From a bacterium (GTDB taxonomy: Bacteria; Patescibacteriota; Patescibacteriia; Patescibacteriales; GWC2-42-12), in contig JAUSEG010000042.1 in assembly GCA_030650415.1 (NCBI GenBank), forward strand, positions 15,052-79,051: a stretch of DNA of 64,000 nucleotides, given 5' to 3'. Below the pieces are notes generated by a model, which had not been told where the DNA came from, made no database searches, and saw only the letters and a program-made list of their open reading frames with translations. This document shows, piece after piece, positions 135 to 56,232 of this stretch. The position numbers and the translations under genes were made by a program. Within the stretch, counting starts at the first letter, position 1. The number at the start of each line of letters is the position of its first letter.

Positions 135-1251
135 TTAATTTTTAGTTCGTAATTTTCTTAAATACGCTTCCATAAACCCCTCCAGATCGCCGTCCAGAAC
201 CTTTTGAATACCCGAAGTCTCATATTCGGTGCGGTGATCCTTTACCAGCTGATACGGCTGCATGACATAAGAACGTATTTGCTTGCCCCATTCGGCTTTT
301 TGCGCCGCGCCGCGCAAATTTTTCTCTTCGCCGACTTTTTTTTCCTCTTCCAGCTTAAATAATTTTGATTTTAAAATACGCAAGGCGGTTTCTTTATTTT
401 GATGCTGCGATCTTTGAGTCTGGCAACTAACGACTAGGCCGCTCGGCTTATGCAAAACGCGCACCGCGGTTTCCACTTTATTAACATTCTGCCCGCCCGC
501 GCCCGAGGAGCGAAAAGTGGTAATTTCCAAATCAGCGTCTTTAATTTCCACTTCTGCCGTTTCCGGCAGCTCCGGTATAACCTCAACCAAAGCAAACGAG
601 GTATGGCGCATCTGCTCGGCATCGAAGGGCGAAATGCGCACTAAGCGATGCACGCCGGATTCACTTTTTAAGTAGCCATAAGCCCAATTGCCGATAATCC
701 TGTAACTCGCGCTCTTTATTCCGGCTTCATTGCCAATATTTCGATCGGCCAACTCGGCTTGCCAATTTTTCTTTTCGGCGAAACGCAAAAACATGCGCTC
801 TAAAATTTGCGCCCAGTCTTGCGCGTCGACTCCGCCCGTGCCGGCATGAAGGGAAATTATGGCGTTAGAGCGGTCATATTTTCCGGAAAACAAAACAAAA
901 AACTCAAACTCCTCATATTGGCGCTTGAGTTCGTCGTATTTTTTATTAACATAATCGTCAAGCGAATTATCGTCTTTCTCGGCCTGCCCTGAGCTTTGCC
1001 GAAGGGCCACAAATTGCTCTAAATCGGTAATTTCTTTTTTTAAATCCTCCCATTTTGTAACTTCAGATTCATACTCTTCGGCCTGCTTGCTTAAAACTAC
1101 GGCGCGTTCCTGATCATGCCAAAAATTCGGTTTGGACATTTCTACTTTTAGCTCATTAACTTTTTCCTTCTGCCGGTCCAAGTCAAAGCAACCTCCAAGT
1201 ATCCAGGAGCTGCTCTCTCAAAATTTCCAGTTGTTTTAATAGATTTTCCAT
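135..1251 (-). CDS. prfB: peptide chain release factor 2 (two frames joined by programmed +1 frameshift)
   Basis: The track ORF 135..1181 carries the SPF (RISPFD) and GGQ ([10 protein letters not shown]) motifs. A short upstream frame, ATG 1251-1249, reads [22 protein letters not shown] and ends at in-frame TGA 1185-1183. Confidence 0.93.
1182..1197 (-). promoter_or_regulatory. programmed +1 ribosomal frameshift site of prfB
   Basis: The minus-sense sequence tGGAGGttgCTT TGA C has an SD-like GGAGG 3 nt upstream of CUU-UGA-C, the same architecture as the E. coli prfB autoregulatory site. Confidence 0.85.
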
Positions 1252-2238: not shown

Positions 2239-3063
2239 TTATCTAACTTCACAAATTTTCGCGTATTTCCGTCCAATCTCGGCCATTTCATTCATCTGCC
2301 GGGAATTATACGGCACCTTGCCCTTTAGCTTCTGATTTACCAACTCGCTTTGGCTTTTAAAATTTTGCAGATACCATTTTCCCGCCCCCTTAATTATTTT
2401 TCCCATCTCGTTGATATCGTTTTTATCCAAGAGGTCGGGCACCACCGTAGTTCTAAATTCATAGGGCAAGCCGCTAGCTCTTATTATCTTAACACTTTTT
2501 TTTACCCCGTCAAATAATTTTGCCACGGGCAAAATTCGTTCCGCTTGGCGGGACGATTTGACGGGGTGAATATAATTAAAATCCACGCTAACTTCCGTAA
2601 CCTCGCCATACTTATATTCGGGCGCCTTTAAATCCATGGCAATATAGTCTATTAATTTCTCTTTAACCAATTCGGCTAAAACTTCCGGATAACTGCCGTT
2701 AGTATCGAGCTTTATTAAATAACCCAGAGCCTTGATTTTTTTAATAAACTCGACCAAATCTTTTTGCAAACATGGCTCGCCGCCGGTTATAACCACGGCG
2801 TCCAGCTTGCCTGACCGATCTTTCAAAAAAACAAAAAAGTCATCCTGATTTATAATCGGATGAGCTTTTTGTTGCTCGATTTCTCTTCCGCTCTCGCGAA
2901 TAAGCTCTCGAACATATTTTAACTTGCTACCCTTAACGGGCCAGACAAGCATGGGGTTATAGCAAAACTGGCAGCGGAAATTACAACCTTGGGTAAAGAC
3001 TATGGCGCTAATTTTCCCCGGGTAATCCAACAAACTGAATTTTTGCAAGCCGCCGATAATCAT
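2239..3063 (-). CDS. nrdG: anaerobic ribonucleoside-triphosphate reductase activating protein (radical SAM)
   Basis: N-terminal CNFRCQFCYNP radical-SAM CxxxCxxC motif. It lies downstream of nrdD. Confidence 0.88.
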   Translation of the reverse strand: MIIGGLQKFSLLDYPGKISAIVFTQGCNFRCQFCYNPMLVWPVKGSKLKYVRELIRESGREIEQQKAHPIINQDDFFVFLKDRSGKLDAVVITGGEPCLQKDLVEFIKKIKALGYLIKLDTNGSYPEVLAELVKEKLIDYIAMDLKAPEYKYGEVTEVSVDFNYIHPVKSSRQAERILPVAKLFDGVKKSVKIIRASGLPYEFRTTVVPDLLDKNDINEMGKIIKGAGKWYLQNFKSQSELVNQKLKGKVPYNSRQMNEMAEIGRKYAKICEVR

Positions 3064-3084
3064 GAAATTTATAAAATATTCCGA

Positions 3085-3225
3085 TTAATTTTCATTAACC
3101 TTAAAAGTCTTGCGATTGCGGTACTCCGATTGCTTGCCGTCATTCCATTGCTGAACCGGCCTTAGGTAGCCGACCACTCTTGAATAAACTTCGCAAGCTG
3201 TTCTCTTGGTTTCGATGGGGCTCAT
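3085..3225 (-). CDS. stand-alone glycyl-radical C-terminal segment of class III RNR (46 aa)
   Basis: By-eye translation MSPIETKRTACEVYSRVVGYLRPVQQWNDGKQSEYRNRKTFKVNEN. It matches the conserved NrdD C-terminus around the radical glycine (SRvxGY...WNxGKxxE...R). It is in the same frame as nrdD but separated from it by stops. Confidence 0.7.
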   Translation of the reverse strand: MSPIETKRTACEVYSRVVGYLRPVQQWNDGKQSEYRNRKTFKVNEN

Positions 3226-3291
3226 AAACAATTATCAATTATCAATTAACAATTTTCAATTGTGGATTGATAATTTTATTTTAATTTTTAT
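3226..3291. repeat. 66-nt AT-rich spacer of AATTGATAATTG / CAATTGAAAATTG repeats that splits nrdD
   Basis: Minus sense: ataaaaattaaaataaaattatcaatccacaattgaaaattgttaattgataattgataattgttt. It is in frame with nrdD and contains TGA, TGA and TAA. It is related to the GAAAATT x4 array in leuS. Confidence 0.7.
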
Positions 3292-5358
3292 TTAAATTAA
3301 TATATTTTCCGCTTGTTTAATCATCTCCTCTTTGGGCGTATAGCCGATTTCCTCGTCGCATTTCGGGCAGAAGAAATGTTCTCCGGCCAGATAACCATGC
3401 TTCGGGCAGACCGAGAAAGTCGGAGTAATAGTAAAGTAAGGCAGATGATATTTATAGGCGATTTTTTTAACCAGCGCTTTAACCGACTCAACCGAGGGCA
3501 GAGCTTCGCCGATAAAACCATGTAAAACCGTTCCGCCCGTATATTTAACCTGTAAATCATCCTGTAAATCCAGAGCCTCAAAAATATCCTGAGTGTAATT
3601 TACCGGCAGTTGGCTGGAATTAGTGTAATATGGCGCGGCGTTATTGGCCTGGAAGGCTGCCTCATTGGCCACGATAATATCGTTGTATTTATCTTTATCG
3701 ATTCTGGACAGGCGCCTGGTTACGCCTTCGGCCGGCGTGGCTTCCAAATTATATAAATGGTTGGTCTTGCCCTGATAATCCAAAACTTTGTTTCTCATGT
3801 AATCCAGAACCTGCAAAGCAAATTCTTTGCCCAGCGGATCGGCGATATTTTTTCTGACCGGCGCGAAATTCAGTAGAGCTTCATTCATGCCGATAATGCC
3901 GATCGTCGAAAAATGATTTTTCCAGTAGCCGCCGAAACGCTCTTTAATGCCATTTAAATAATACTTAGCATAGGGATAGAGGCCGTTGTCGGTTAGGTTT
4001 TCCAGAACCGTGCGTTTTATTTCCAGGCTTTCCGAAGCGATCTGCATTAAATTATTTAAGCGCTCAAAAAATTCTTCTTTAGTTTTTGCCAAGTAGCCGA
4101 TGCGCGGCAAATTAATCGTTACTACGCCGATTGAACCGGTTAAGGGATTGGCTGCGAATAAACCGCCGCCGCGTTTTCTTAATTCCCGGTTATCCAGGCG
4201 CAAGCGGCAGCACATTGAGCGCGCGTCTTCCGGATTCATGTCGCTATTAATAAAATTGGAAAAATATGGAATGCCGTATTTAGCGGTCATTTCAAAAATC
4301 TTGTTGGCTACCGGCGAATCCCATTTAAAATCCTTGGTAACATTATAGGTCGGGATCGGAAAAGTAAAAACTCTGCCCTTGGCGTCGCCTTCCATCATTA
4401 ATTCGGCAAAAGCCAAGTTAATCATGTCCATTTCGTTCTGGAATTCTTTATACTTCTCCGGCATGACCTTGCCGCCGATGATTACATTCTCTTCGCTCGT
4501 AGTCGGACCCGGAGTTAAATCCATAGTAATATTGGTAAACGGCGTCTGAAAACCCACCCGAGTCGGGACGTTAATATTAAACAAGAACTCCTGGATGGCC
4601 TGCTTTACATCTTTGTAGCTTAAATTGTCATACTTAATAAACGGCGCCAGATAAGTATCAAAATTAGAGAAAGCTTCGGCGCCGGCCACTTCGCCCTGTA
4701 AAGTATAAAAAAAGTTAACAATCTGGCCTAGAGCGGTTCTTAAGTGCTTGGCCGGCTTGGCTTCAACCTTGCCGGAAACGCCGCCGAAACCGCGAATTAG
4801 CAATTCCCTTAAATCCCAGCCGGCGCAATATGGCGCTAATAATTGCAGATCATGCAAATGCAAATCCCCGCTCTTATGAGCATCTCTAATATTCTGGCTA
4901 TAGACTTGGTTCAACCAATAATTTGAAGAAATCGCCGAGGCCAAGTGGTTATTTAAGCCCTGGAGCGAGTAGCTCATATTGGAATTCTCTTTTACTCGCC
5001 AATCGCTTTGCTTTAAGTAGCCTTCCATTAATTCATCCGAGTTAATCATAGACTTCATCTCGCGGAGCCGAGCCTGCTGATCACGGTATAGAATATAAGC
5101 CTTAGCGGTTTTAATCTGGCGATTTTTAATCAAAATTTCTTCCACCAGATCCTGTACCTCTTCAACCGCCGGAATGCTCCGGGCATGAAATTTTTCATTT
5201 AAAATGGCTACCACCTGGTCGGAAAGCTTCTGCGCCAGAAACATATCCGGCTTACCCACCGCTTCAGTCGCCTTATAAATCGCGTTAACCAGCTTTGCCT
5301 GATCAAAGGGCGCGATTTCGCCGGAACGTTTCAAAATTTGAGTTATGGTATTTTGCAT
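3292..5358 (-). CDS. nrdD: anaerobic ribonucleoside-triphosphate reductase (class III), lacking the glycyl-radical tail
   Basis: 688-aa ORF with an ATP-cone-like N-terminus and NrdD core motifs. It ends just after the C-terminal Zn-ribbon (CPKHG...CPKCDEEI). Confidence 0.92.
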   Translation of the reverse strand: MQNTITQILKRSGEIAPFDQAKLVNAIYKATEAVGKPDMFLAQKLSDQVVAILNEKFHARSIPAVEEVQDLVEEILIKNRQIKTAKAYILYRDQQARLREMKSMINSDELMEGYLKQSDWRVKENSNMSYSLQGLNNHLASAISSNYWLNQVYSQNIRDAHKSGDLHLHDLQLLAPYCAGWDLRELLIRGFGGVSGKVEAKPAKHLRTALGQIVNFFYTLQGEVAGAEAFSNFDTYLAPFIKYDNLSYKDVKQAIQEFLFNINVPTRVGFQTPFTNITMDLTPGPTTSEENVIIGGKVMPEKYKEFQNEMDMINLAFAELMMEGDAKGRVFTFPIPTYNVTKDFKWDSPVANKIFEMTAKYGIPYFSNFINSDMNPEDARSMCCRLRLDNRELRKRGGGLFAANPLTGSIGVVTINLPRIGYLAKTKEEFFERLNNLMQIASESLEIKRTVLENLTDNGLYPYAKYYLNGIKERFGGYWKNHFSTIGIIGMNEALLNFAPVRKNIADPLGKEFALQVLDYMRNKVLDYQGKTNHLYNLEATPAEGVTRRLSRIDKDKYNDIIVANEAAFQANNAAPYYTNSSQLPVNYTQDIFEALDLQDDLQVKYTGGTVLHGFIGEALPSVESVKALVKKIAYKYHLPYFTITPTFSVCPKHGYLAGEHFFCPKCDEEIGYTPKEEMIKQAENILI

Positions 5359-5491: not shown

Positions 5492-5989
5492 TTATTTTTT
5501 AACCGATCTCGCCGAGACTTTAGCTATGGCGGACTTGCCTGTCTTCAATAACTTGTTCAACTCCCGCTTAAATTCATGCGCGTCTTTAAATGATTCATAA
5601 ACGCTGGCAAAACGGATATAGGCCACTTGATCGAAGCGCTTAAGGTTTTTCATGACGATCTGACCGATTTCGCCGGCTGTTACCTCATTCTTCCTTAAAA
5701 TCTGCAAATCGCGTTCAATCGAATTAATCAATTTTTTAAAACTATCGTCAGTTACCGGCCTTTTCTCTAGAGCCCGCTTTAAACCCTTAACAATTTTCTC
5801 CCGTGAGTAAGATTCTTTGCGGCCATCGCGCTTAACTACCGCTAAATCCAAAATTTCCACTTCTTCATAGGTCGAGAACCTAAAGCCGCACTTCAGGCAC
5901 TCCCGTCGCCTTCTGATAGACAGGCCGTCTAAAGCCACCCTAGAGTCGGTTACCTTTGAATCTTCATAGTAGCAGACCGGACATCTCAT
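5492..5989 (-). CDS. nrdR: transcriptional repressor NrdR
   Basis: N-terminal Zn-ribbon MRCPVCYYEDSKVTDSR...CLKCGFRFSTYE plus an ATP-cone. Strong SD (aaggaggag) upstream. Confidence 0.93.
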   Translation of the reverse strand: MRCPVCYYEDSKVTDSRVALDGLSIRRRRECLKCGFRFSTYEEVEILDLAVVKRDGRKESYSREKIVKGLKRALEKRPVTDDSFKKLINSIERDLQILRKNEVTAGEIGQIVMKNLKRFDQVAYIRFASVYESFKDAHEFKRELNKLLKTGKSAIAKVSARSVKK

Positions 5990-6155: not shown

Positions 6156-6205
6156 GTAAACCTGGAATCTCTAAGCTTTATCCATATCTTGTGGTTGTTG
6201 ATTTA

Positions 6206-6233
6206 ATTATACCACTATATATAGTATGGTCAA
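6206..6233 (-). promoter_or_regulatory. candidate nrd operon promoter with an NrdR box as its spacer
   Basis: Minus sense reads TTGACC-N16-TATAAT. The 16-nt spacer ATACTATATATAGTGG (plus strand 6212-6227) matches the NrdR-box consensus acaCwAtATaTwGtgt at about 14/16. A weaker second box near 6181-6196 has its centre about 31 bp away. Confidence 0.55.
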
Positions 6234-53439: not shown

Positions 53440-56232
53440 TTATATAACTATATTTACTAATTTCCCTTTAACAAAAATAACTTTAATAATTTCCTTATAT
53501 TCAAGCCATTTCTTTATTTTTTCGCTTTCTAAAGCGATTTTTTTAGCTTCTTCTTCGCTAATCTCAGCCAAAACTTTAAGAGTGTCGCGCACCTTGCCGT
53601 TTATCTGAATCACTAGATTTATGGTTTCATCCTTAACTAATTCCGGATTATATTTCGGCCACGGCTGTTTAAAAATACTTTCTTTATTGCCCAGTTCCGA
53701 CCACAGTTCCTCGCATAAATGCGGCGCGAACGGCGCTAAAATCTTTAAAAAATTCTCCAACGCTCCGCGCGGCATAGCATCAAGCTTGCCGGCGAAATTT
53801 ACAAAAATCATCATGGCGCTAATCGCCGTGTTGTAATGAAAATCTTCTATATCTTGCGTGACTTTTTTTATTGTTTTGTGAAGCAGCTTTGGCAAGCCCG
53901 ACTCTTTAATCTTGCAGTCGCCGCCCTGGCAATCGTATAATTTTTTATCTTTTAATTTATAAACATTTTCCAAAAATCTTCTGGCGCCGATCACGCCGTT
54001 GGTGCTCCAGGCGCAAGGCTGGTTAAACGGCCCCATGAACATTTCATAAACGCGCAGCGAATCCGCGCCGAATTTTTCCACTATTTCGTCCGGGTTAATA
54101 ACATTACCCCAACGTTTTGACATCTTGCGCCCGTCCTCGGCCATGATTAAACCAACCTGCTGCAGCCGCGTGAACGGCTCATCGTAATTTACCGCGCCGA
54201 TATCATATAAGAACTTATGCCAGAAGCGCGCGTAAATCAGATGTCGCGTAGCATGCTCGGCGCCGCCGACATAAAAATCCACCGGCGACCAATATTTTTC
54301 TTTGACTTTATCGACCAGCGCTTTCTTATTTTTGGGATCAATATATCTTAAATAATACCAGCTTGACCCTGCCCATTGCGGCATAGTATTGGTTTCGCGC
54401 AAAGCCTTACCGCCGCACTTCGGGCACTTGGTATTCACCCACTCTTTAATATTAGCCAGTGGCGACTCGCCCGTGCCGGTCGGCTGGTAATTTTTCACTT
54501 CGGGTAATTTCAAAGGTAATTCTTTCTCCGGCACCGCCACATTACCGCATTTCTCGCAATGGATAATCGGGATCGGCTCGCCCCAGTAGCGCTGACGGGA
54601 AAACACCCAGTCACGGAGTTTATAGTGCACAGTTAATTTGCCAAACTCTTTAGCCATTTTTGATCTTGCCTGATTGGATTTCATTCCGGTAAAATCTCCT
54701 GAGTTTATCACAACCCCTTCGCCAATATAACAAACGAACTCTTCATAAAATGAATTATGCCACAACATTTCCCAAATACTATTATACTTTCTGACTAACG
54801 GTTCAGTCCGTTTTAGCCTTTCAAATAATTTTAAATCATTAAATTGAAAATTTTCAAACACTTTATCTTTGAAAACCAAAATATTTCTAGCCCCGATGAT
54901 ATCTACCCAACCATCTCCTTTTAAATAGCTCTGGACCATCTTTATAAATTTATTAATCTGGTATTCTTTTAGAACTATTCGAATATGTTCTCTCCCGTTT
55001 CTACTTAGTCCAATCGTAAATTCAATTTTACTTTTTACAAGCTCATCCTTTAGGCCTTTTTCTACGGTTTCAGTAACTATGATTGATTTCAAAATATCTT
55101 CTGGCCTGACAACTTGTTTGATTGGTAAATTATATTTAATAGCAAATTCAAAGTCCCTCTGGTCATGCGCCGGCACGGCCATAATCGCGCCTGTGCCATA
55201 CCCAGTTAGTACATAATCGGCTACGAAGATTGGAATTTCTTCATTGTTAACCGGATTAATCGCCATTATGCCTTCTAACTTAATACCGGTTTTTTCTTTG
55301 TTTAAATCAGTTCGCTCCAGGTCGCTCTTATTTTTAGCCGCGTTTATGTATCCTTCCACTTCGGCCCAGTTCTTAATCTCGCTTTTTAAATCTTGGATTA
55401 ATTTATGCTCCGGCGAGATTACCATGAAGGTCGCGCCGAAAAGAGTGTCCGGCCGCGTAGTAAAAACTTCTATAAATTTTTGGCAATTTGATTTTTTAGA
55501 TTTATTTGAAAATTGAAAATTGAAAATTGAAAATTTAACTATTGCCCCTTCGCTCCGCCCGATCCAATTTCTCTGCATTTCCTTAATCGACTCTTCCCAG
55601 TCCGGCAATTTTTCCAAATCGTTAAGCAGGCGATCGGCGTAATCGGTAATTTTTAAAACCCACTGGCGCATCGGCTTCCTTTCCACCGCCGTGCCGCAGC
55701 GCTCGCACAAGCCACCCTCCAAATCTTCGTTAGATAAAACCGTTTTACATGACGGGCACCAATTCACGGGCTCGTTCGATTCATAAGCCAGCCCGCGTTC
55801 AAACATTTTTATGAAAGTCCATTGCGTCCATTTATAATATTCCGGATCGGTGGTATTTATTTCCCGCTCCCAATCATAGGTGAAGCCCAATTTCCCCAGC
55901 TGATTTTTAAAAGTGGCAATATTTTTTTCCGTGGCGGCTCGCGGATGAATTTTATTGGCGATGGCGTAATTTTCCGCCGGCAGGCCGAACGCGTCCCAGC
56001 CCATAGGGTGAAGCACATTATAGCCTTGCATCATTTTGGCGCGGGCAAAAATGTCCGTGGCGATATAGCCCTTAGGATGGCCGACATGAAGGCCGGAGCC
56101 GGAAGGGTAAGGAAACATATCCAAAATATAATATTTCGGTTTGGCTTTATCTTCGGAAGTTCTGTATAACTTGGTTTTTTTCCAGCTCTTGATCCACTTC
56201 TCTTCTATTTTTTTGTGATCATACTTTTCCAT
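53440..56232 (-). CDS. leuS: leucine--tRNA ligase
   Basis: HVGHPKGY (HIGH), FTTRPDTLFGAT, KMSKRWGN (KMSKS). 930 aa with extra inserted segments. Confidence 0.93.
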   Translation of the reverse strand: MEKYDHKKIEEKWIKSWKKTKLYRTSEDKAKPKYYILDMFPYPSGSGLHVGHPKGYIATDIFARAKMMQGYNVLHPMGWDAFGLPAENYAIANKIHPRAATEKNIATFKNQLGKLGFTYDWEREINTTDPEYYKWTQWTFIKMFERGLAYESNEPVNWCPSCKTVLSNEDLEGGLCERCGTAVERKPMRQWVLKITDYADRLLNDLEKLPDWEESIKEMQRNWIGRSEGAIVKFSIFNFQFSNKSKKSNCQKFIEVFTTRPDTLFGATFMVISPEHKLIQDLKSEIKNWAEVEGYINAAKNKSDLERTDLNKEKTGIKLEGIMAINPVNNEEIPIFVADYVLTGYGTGAIMAVPAHDQRDFEFAIKYNLPIKQVVRPEDILKSIIVTETVEKGLKDELVKSKIEFTIGLSRNGREHIRIVLKEYQINKFIKMVQSYLKGDGWVDIIGARNILVFKDKVFENFQFNDLKLFERLKRTEPLVRKYNSIWEMLWHNSFYEEFVCYIGEGVVINSGDFTGMKSNQARSKMAKEFGKLTVHYKLRDWVFSRQRYWGEPIPIIHCEKCGNVAVPEKELPLKLPEVKNYQPTGTGESPLANIKEWVNTKCPKCGGKALRETNTMPQWAGSSWYYLRYIDPKNKKALVDKVKEKYWSPVDFYVGGAEHATRHLIYARFWHKFLYDIGAVNYDEPFTRLQQVGLIMAEDGRKMSKRWGNVINPDEIVEKFGADSLRVYEMFMGPFNQPCAWSTNGVIGARRFLENVYKLKDKKLYDCQGGDCKIKESGLPKLLHKTIKKVTQDIEDFHYNTAISAMMIFVNFAGKLDAMPRGALENFLKILAPFAPHLCEELWSELGNKESIFKQPWPKYNPELVKDETINLVIQINGKVRDTLKVLAEISEEEAKKIALESEKIKKWLEYKEIIKVIFVKGKLVNIVI
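55508..55535. repeat. GAAAATT x4 tandem heptamer inside leuS
   Basis: gaaaattgaaaattgaaaattgaaaatt, translated on the minus strand as FSIFNFQFS. Confidence 0.8.

Follow-up and report, generated by a model that had tools for sequence, protein, structure and literature searches.

Does an nrdD gene for a class III ribonucleotide reductase (RNR) that ends before its glycyl-radical site represent a broken gene, or one part of an enzyme that is made from two genes? This question is raised by a locus in a 64,000-nucleotide stretch, hereafter the window, of contig JAUSEG010000042.1 (assembly GCA_030650415.1, positions 15,052 to 79,051), which derives from a bacterium of the Patescibacteriota lineage GWC2-42-12. 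Open reading frame (ORF) and profile analysis of the window gives the minus-strand gene order nrdR, a 688-codon nrdD, a 46-codon ORF and nrdG. The nrdD gene is terminated by a TAA at 3294-3292, the following 66 nt (3291-3226) comprise 22 codons in the nrdD frame with three further stops (TGA, TGA and TAA), and the small ORF, MSPIETKRTACEVYSRVVGYLRPVQQWNDGKQSEYRNRKTFKVNEN, is opened by the ATG at 3225 and closed by a stop at 3087-3085. With the terminal TAA of nrdD counted, four in-frame stops are found inside 3085-5358. The sequence confirms the original prediction as to the nrdD stop, the 66 nt that follow, the in-frame ATG leading into the radical motif and the three additional stops in the spacer. 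The locus very probably encodes an obligately two-subunit class III RNR, and represents neither a lesion nor a recoding site nor an assembly error.

The Pfam NRDD family (PF13597, 562 positions) is divided between the two ORFs, with positions 1-531 aligning to residues 124-669 of the large ORF, while the last 31 positions (532-562) are the sole match of the small ORF (residues 9-41, E 1.6e-10). The large ORF scores 1051.6 bits against NF006126 (cutoff 548; profile positions 2-652 of 684) and 526 bits against TIGR02487 (cutoff 326). Class III models are the best for the locus, and class II models match the ATP-cone only. The finger-loop motif SMCCRLRLD is present in the large ORF, as is a Zn ribbon (CPKH-x9-CPKC) near its end that aligns with the tmNrdD Zn site, but the RVxGY glycyl-radical motif is not on this core polypeptide and is found on the separate ORF behind the four stops. 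No PFL-family match, including the PFL-type radical domain (Pfam Gly_radical), was obtained for the small ORF at E<=0.1. The break is positioned between the CPxC Zn ribbon and the radical strand. In the alignment, just three residues lie between CPVCG and the radical strand of T. maritima NrdD, whereas about 50 codons (~150 nt) are extra here, namely 21 residues by which the large ORF extends past CPKC, the stop with the spacer, and 10 leader residues at the start of the small ORF. The end of nrdD had been placed right after the Zn ribbon in the original prediction, but the conserved 21-residue extension intervenes. Small tails of this type match only the C-terminal end of full-length models in NCBIfam and PHROGs, in neither of which is there a dedicated family for stand-alone tails. 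No second nrdD, the presence of which had been envisaged as a reason to doubt the split enzyme, is found within the 64-kb window.

With one genome scanned for each GTDB species, 80 loci were obtained, or 81 with the window, of which 79 could be classified, and the radical motif is encoded in its own ORF in 56 of these 79 cellular loci (window included). The separate tail ORFs have a conserved start (MSPIE...). In the Parcubacteria/Falkowbacteria clade the split is present in all 28 classifiable loci, at 64-92% identity, and the large ORF, the tail and nrdG are syntenic throughout. The comparison of nrdD 3' ends in related genomes, including other genomes of the Candidate Phyla Radiation (CPR), which had been proposed along with the original prediction, has thus yielded the same split in every classifiable clade locus and a contiguous gene in none. 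The large ORF ends in a conserved ...CPKCDEEIGYxxKEE..E..LI and the small ORF starts with MSPIE(T/V)KRTxCEVYSR, while the spacers between them range from 28 to 355 nt and the small ORF occurs in relative frames 0, 1 and 2. Since the relatives use all three relative frames, the in-frame spacing in the window is due to chance, and the earlier emphasis on a shared frame at exactly 66 nt concerned an incidental feature. A clean AGGAG Shine-Dalgarno sequence precedes the small ORF in the Elusimicrobia and some Parcubacteria, and relatives without such a sequence have TTTTAAAYT 7-12 nt before the small-ORF ATG. Fifteen independently assembled contigs (ENA, NCBI, JGI and Logan; different samples and assemblers) encode a 46-residue product identical to that of the window, and on them the tail is always its own gene between a ~688-residue NrdD ending ...ENILI stop and nrdG, excluding an assembly artefact for the architecture. 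Spacers of 107 or 251 nt occur on contigs with the identical tail, and in one assembly a 122-residue predicted membrane-protein ORF (L088:522-890) lies between the large ORF and the identical 46-residue tail.

Both sides of the break also carry the signature of constraint on coding sequence. Among 19 clade members the small ORF has a mean proportion of nonsynonymous differences (pN) of 0.10 against 0.75 at synonymous sites (pS), with dN/dS of about 0.01-0.14. In the comparison with the relative L001 the peptide is identical although 62% of the synonymous sites differ (pS 0.62), giving a dN/dS of 0.007. The large-ORF extension shows a pN of 0.22 against a pS of 0.70. These values point to strong purifying selection on the small ORF and to purifying selection on the large-subunit extension as well. 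Together, the alignments show two separately constrained genes in conserved synteny with nrdG.

As an intergenic hairpin that evolves fast, the 66-nt spacer is ordinary for this genome and has no role in joining the two pieces. Its G+C content is 14% (flanking stop and start codons counted), and the heptamer AATTGAWAATTG is present in five copies in the window against 0.08 expected, three of them in the spacer and two in a (GAAAATT)x4 array at 55508-55535 inside leuS (53440..56232, minus strand), where the array is read through as FSIFNFQFS; the kinship between the spacer repeats and the leuS array had been correctly recognised beforehand. Folding of the spacer gives a minimum free energy of -13.3 kcal/mol (z -3.2), and none of 200 shuffles is as stable. 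The spacers of the relatives are unrelated in sequence, are not conserved in length and form hairpins from other units (ttgaaaa, aattagg, gcaaaatg and gtcattgcgag), while that of L082 matches the window for its first 29 nt (TAA stop onwards), beyond which its repeats differ in number. The differing repeat count of L082 and the other units in the relatives indicate that the spacer evolves by repeat expansion and contraction. In Rfam, 2900-3600 was matched at E<=1 by a Plasmodium sRNA alone, a spurious match (19 bits against a threshold of 70), and by no intron, the terminator scan found no intrinsic terminator in the spacer, and no NrdR box occurs there, the sole good box being located in the nrdR promoter. 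A Shine-Dalgarno-like motif precedes only three of the 40 long ORFs of the window, while many window genes (e.g. 2148-2335) have a hairpin-forming, REP-like element ending in ...cgcaatgac ~10 nt before the ATG, and in the relatives L005 and L008 this element takes up the spacer between nrdD and the tail. Given the few Shine-Dalgarno sites and the hairpin elements before many start codons, the spacer looks normal for this genome. A role of the TTGAAA-17-GATAAT sequence before the small ORF as an internal promoter or leaderless start is speculative.

Four other explanations can be set against the two-subunit enzyme. The small ORF might be an accessory spare part, that is, a GrcA-like rescue peptide for a fused NrdD encoded elsewhere, with the tail-less large ORF being non-functional or active only after rescue. 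A view restricted to 64 kb of the genome leaves room for such a gene, and the orphan phage tails described below show that tails exist apart from a large subunit; this is nevertheless improbable, as the tail-less large ORF is intact and conserved clade-wide with its extension under purifying selection, synteny of the large ORF, tail and nrdG holds throughout the clade, the window contains no other nrdD and an extra tail ORF is found near none of the 23 fused loci. A single polypeptide could be made from both ORFs if the spacer were bypassed or read through during translation or were excised from the mRNA, the third option of the original prediction, but this is very unlikely. The single frame at exactly 66 nt in the window and the hairpin within the spacer would fit such a joining, but the relatives have frames 0, 1 and 2 and spacers of 4-355 nt of unrelated sequence, four in-frame stops (terminal TAA counted) stand in the way in the window, the small ORF has its own start codon and Shine-Dalgarno sequence in many relatives, nrdG lies between the pieces in two lineages and ~30 kb separates them on a phage contig, and no Rfam family, intron or other, matches the region. 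Specific mechanisms of this kind were also considered and rejected. A programmed bypass or readthrough of the T4 gene 60 type is at odds with the lack of a conserved frame or spacing and with independent initiation (Shine-Dalgarno sequence, conserved Met), a self-splicing intron of the T4 nrdD group I type with a spacer of 66 nt and no credible Rfam match, and a split intein with flanking extensions of 21 and 10 residues, which are far too short, split-intein segments being much longer.

The two remaining explanations would make the split an accident of this one sequence. The recent insertion of a repeat element into a contiguous nrdD, leaving a pseudogene, was the second of three options in the original prediction, none of which was preferred there, and the repeats of the spacer do occur elsewhere in the window. 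Such an insertion is extremely unlikely, given that relatives as distant as 64% identity have the split too, with spacers that are each filled differently, that the peptide hardly varies although synonymous sites are saturated, that the extensions flanking the break are conserved coding sequence, and that none of the 28 clade members has a contiguous gene here; the repeats are the variable filling of an old spacer between two selected pieces. An assembly or sequencing error at an AT-rich repeat could be suspected from the low G+C content (14%) and repetitiveness of the spacer, and from the lack of a second record of the exact large-subunit sequence, but with the identical separate tail behind a ~688-residue ORF ending ...ENILI on 15 contigs from four sources (ENA, NCBI, JGI and Logan) its probability is practically negligible.

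In an obligately two-subunit class III RNR, the 46-residue small subunit would be translated from its own ATG and would carry Gly19 (of RVVGY) and the C-terminal tail. The chain would be broken at a surface joint, where the Zn ribbon passes into the inward-dipping radical loop, with the Zn ribbon staying on the large chain. In published NrdD structures, the Zn ribbon sits after the last barrel strand and ahead of the C-terminal Gly loop, whose buried glycine has to come out before it can be activated (PMC4493059), and the whole glycyl radical domain is highly mobile (PMC11226230). PFL with GrcA/YfiD is an established case of a radical domain working in trans (PMC13450708, PMC8683613). We infer that the peptide would dock non-covalently, with its loop entering the barrel beside the finger-loop cysteines, and that activation would occur in trans, NrdG taking the Gly19 hydrogen from the free or loosely bound peptide; catalysis would thereafter proceed as in fused NrdD. 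Because the radical element would be a separate, cheap polypeptide, its activation outside the barrel would call for no large domain movement, and an oxygen-cleaved peptide could be swapped without remaking the large subunit.

Several points weigh against this interpretation. The two-subunit enzyme is predicted from its genes, and the advantage of a replaceable part would be plausible by analogy with other systems. With 64 kb of the genome in view, a second, fused nrdD or an RNR of another class could be encoded elsewhere. The window's own version of the spacer, with 66 nt, is without an independent assembly, since a sequence look-up gave no second record of the exact 688-residue large subunit. 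Amphipathic tether helices in the extensions flanking the break are unsupported, as a crude hydrophobic-moment shuffle test gave z<1 in 14 of 14 segments, drawn from both sides of the break in Parcubacteria, Elusimicrobia, Deferribacteraceae and viral sequences, and tethering of the subunits by an amphipathic helix or coiled coil formed by these extensions is speculation.

Separate tail ORFs are also found outside the clade, in ~30 loci of Elusimicrobia, with AGGAG 6-9 nt before the ATG, in Micrarchaeota, and in one metagenome-assembled genome (MAG) each of Deferribacteraceae, Spirochaetes and FCPU426. In the Woesearchaeota (L023:2507-2803 and L078:5022-5220) the break lies inside the second Zn knuckle, with ...CPYEV... 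on the large ORF and M(S/A)KCxxxCEV(Y/M)SR on the small ORF, the two ORFs overlapping in L023, and the Zn site may be assembled from both chains. Two MAGs, one of Bacillota and one of Synergistales, have the order large ORF, nrdG, tail (L039:4883-5740 and L058:5019-5726). When the cores are placed on a neighbour-joining tree, the deep nodes of which are unreliable and the sample of which is biased towards relatives of a split query, the split forms are spread over at least five clades with fused forms in between, suggesting recurrent fission at the same joint. In two archaeal MAGs (L071:2938-5481 and L079:712-3165), the fused NrdD continues past the radical tail into an additional thioredoxin-like domain (...HCPHCPAVKLYL...GTPTVILLD...) at its C-terminus.

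A search of the 46-residue peptide against 1.84 billion cluster representatives (50% identity) gave 3424 matches at E<=0.001. Among the best 150 representatives, 147 have fewer than 200 residues, 135 of these short ones start with Met, and an upstream CxxC is found in only 12 of them, which are fused-enzyme fragments or have Cys-rich leaders. The 150 representatives thus consist almost entirely of stand-alone tails. In public annotation the tail ORFs are named 'anaerobic ribonucleoside-triphosphate reductase' or 'hypothetical protein', and no cultured organism with the split is among the records listed for the search with an Elusimicrobia tail. One protein of 1498 residues with six tail-like stretches (P0142) was discarded as an unrelated repeat protein with a chance motif resemblance. 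In some short tail proteins (P0005, P0022 and P0062) the radical motif is duplicated in tandem within the chain (e.g. ...EVYSRVVGYLSPVSHWNEGKKEEWEVYSRVVGYLSPV...), which may be an assembly artefact or a real duplication.

Viral contigs were scanned as well. By means of an alignment of 60 stand-alone tails, at least 529 tail-encoding stretches were found in IMG/VR. A scan with the large subunit as a single protein proved too specific, with one match, and was redone with an alignment. The best 80 of the tail loci (L089-L168) were classified by tblastn and profile hidden Markov models within the fetched flanks, and comprise nine fused genes, two contig-edge fragments, one split gene with an adjacent large ORF and 68 orphan tails with neither an NrdD core nor NrdG within those flanks (e.g. 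L090:3501-3635, L091:3501-3635 and L152:3501-3623). At least 3.2 kb of upstream sequence is available for 53 of the 68 orphans, 39 of which also have at least 3 kb downstream. The neighbours of the orphan tails are phage genes (terminase, portal, RecA, primase and RNase H). On the 71.6-kb contig IMGVR_UViG_3300014204_007706 a tail-less large ORF (L235:1501-3462) and one of the orphan tails (L132:3501-3602) are located ~30 kb apart. Several viral tails have the MSP... leader of the Parcubacteria type. Some viral tails (L104, L110, L115, L116, L135, L143 and L162, at ~3200-3620) are longer, with 80-160 residues and their own N-terminal CxxC...CxxC Zn-ribbon-like domain before ...NYQxCEVYSRVVGY, so that in these the whole radical domain, Zn ribbon included, stands alone. 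A radical S-adenosylmethionine (SAM) domain protein (L099:1047-2114; phrog_9298, E 3.7e-85) is encoded 1.3 kb upstream of one orphan viral tail and could conceivably be an alternative activase. Judging from the cellular and viral loci together, the split arrangement is widespread in uncultured microbes and phages.

The orphan viral tails may be phage 'spare parts' for the class III RNR of the host. Taken further, the NrdD tail might act as a diffusible and exchangeable protein cofactor, with NrdG charging the free 46-residue peptide, which would plug into any compatible tail-less large subunit and be discarded after oxygen damage, and with tail-only phages thereby re-arming or taking over the large subunit of the host during infection. 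This proposal is a tentative one, somewhat less likely to be right than wrong; its phage takeover part derives from the 68 of 80 viral loci without a core or nrdG in the flanks and from the several tails with the MSP... leader typical of Parcubacteria hosts. Such a system of radical 'spare parts' or auxiliary metabolic genes would, if real, be the first for ribonucleotide reduction.

The features of the locus are collected in the table. Both nrdG (TIGR02495, 209 bits against 131) and nrdR (PF22811 and PF03477) are intact, as had been stated from the sequence at the outset. The NrdR-box-like palindrome in the promoter-like site of nrdR suggests autoregulation of the whole cluster. Elsewhere in the window, prfB (135..1250, minus strand; ATG at 1250-1248) contains a programmed +1 frameshift site, CTT TGA C, at 1182-1188, preceded by a GGAGG that stands out, Shine-Dalgarno sites being few among the genes of this genome.

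Table. Features of the nrdR-nrdD-tail-nrdG locus, in order of transcription on the minus strand of the window
Feature	Position	Strand	Remarks
Promoter-like site of the nrdR-nrdD-tail-nrdG cluster, TTGACC-16-TATAAT	6233..6206, within 6180..6233	minus	
NrdR-box-like palindrome between the -35 and -10 hexamers	6227..6212	minus	2 mismatches to consensus
Second box-like site, weak, 32 bp downstream	~6195..6180	minus	By eye, ~10/16 matches
nrdR, predicted transcriptional repressor of RNR genes (Zn ribbon and ATP-cone)	5492..5989	minus	PF22811 2.7e-19, PF03477 7.8e-21
nrdD, predicted large subunit, 688 residues: ATP-cone, barrel core and Zn ribbon (CPKH...CPKC), without glycyl-radical loop	3292..5358	minus	
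Clade-specific C-terminal extension, large-subunit residues 670-688, EIGYTPKEEMIKQAENILI	3295..3351	minus	Past the end of the family profile
Intergenic spacer, 66 nt, AATTGAWAATTG-type heptamer repeats	3226..3291	minus	
Spacer hairpin from inverted repeat arrays	3230..3275	minus	18-nt arms, 89% complementary
Promoter-like TTGAAA-17-GATAAT	3231..3259	minus	-10 element ends 5 nt before the small-ORF ATG
Predicted small subunit, 46 residues: NrdD glycyl-radical loop and C-terminal tail as own gene	3085..3225	minus	PF13597 532-562
Gly19 codon GGC, predicted radical glycine of RVVGY	3169..3171	minus	Invariant in 60 aligned stand-alone tails
nrdG, predicted radical-SAM activase	2239..3063	minus	TIGR02495 (NrdG2) 209.4 bits, cutoff 131.15; start 21 nt past the small ORF

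Among known systems, GrcA/YfiD of E. coli and Y06I of phage T4 are likewise small stand-alone homologues of a C-terminal radical domain, which are activated by the cognate activase and act in trans with a PFL large subunit that is without a functional radical domain, and with Y06I the GrcA system too has a phage-encoded version (PMC13450708, PMC8683613). GrcA, however, belongs to the PFL family and has ~127 residues, whereas the present peptide is of the NrdD type, has 46 residues and matches the NRDD profile only. GrcA is furthermore a spare for an oxygen-damaged full-length enzyme, whereas the present large subunit never carries a radical loop, which would make the peptide obligate. Of the options given initially, that of a two-piece enzyme with a detachable radical peptide is the one favoured by the evidence. 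The comparison with GrcA suits a radical domain that would act in trans, but not the spare-part role, the peptide being the only radical domain. The split class II NrdJa/NrdJb of Pseudomonas aeruginosa and its relatives is similar in that the catalytic polypeptide is divided near its C-terminus between two consecutive genes, a state conserved within a subclade, and in that turnover depends on a functional module of the C-terminal piece (PMC9669993, citing Crona et al. 2015). It differs in being an adenosylcobalamin (B12)-dependent class II enzyme, and the NrdJb piece is a folded protein with Zn-finger, IscU-like and Cys-pair re-reduction modules and not a 46-residue peptide with the radical site.

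The fused NrdD enzymes of phage T4, T. maritima and P. copri share the core, Zn ribbon, radical motif and NrdG partner with the split locus, and the break maps to their linker between the Zn ribbon and the Gly loop (PMC4493059). In the fused enzymes, unlike here, the radical loop is covalently attached 2-10 residues past the Zn ribbon. Interrupted RNR genes that are nonetheless functional include nrdA of Aeromonas phage Aeh1, which is split by the homing endonuclease mobE, and T4 nrdD, which contains a group I intron. These interruptions arise from mobile elements and contain them, whereas no mobile element or intron is present here and the break is ancient and clade-wide.

A review of glycyl radical enzymes of June 2026 lists spare-part proteins as known for formate lyases only. 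No description of a split class III RNR or of an NrdD-type spare part was found in the searchable literature, which covers few subscription-journal papers, and an earlier description of a split class III RNR might therefore exist. A recent RNR phylogeny dropped all sequences with fewer than 400 residues (PMC9531940), a filter by which the tails would be hidden. Tail-less NrdD proteins and tail ORFs of 45-75 residues are likely discarded as fragments, and metabolic reconstructions of CPR bacteria may wrongly score split nrdD genes as pseudogenes. The biochemistry and structures of class III RNR all come from fused enzymes, in which the buried loop must reach the activase, and a free 46-residue radical peptide would make this loop-exit step experimentally accessible through charging of the free peptide, docking, exchange and rescue of oxygen-damaged enzyme. 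Hundreds of clusters of stand-alone tails, recurrent fission at one joint and orphan tails in phages would revise the view that radical spare parts are restricted to the formate lyases.

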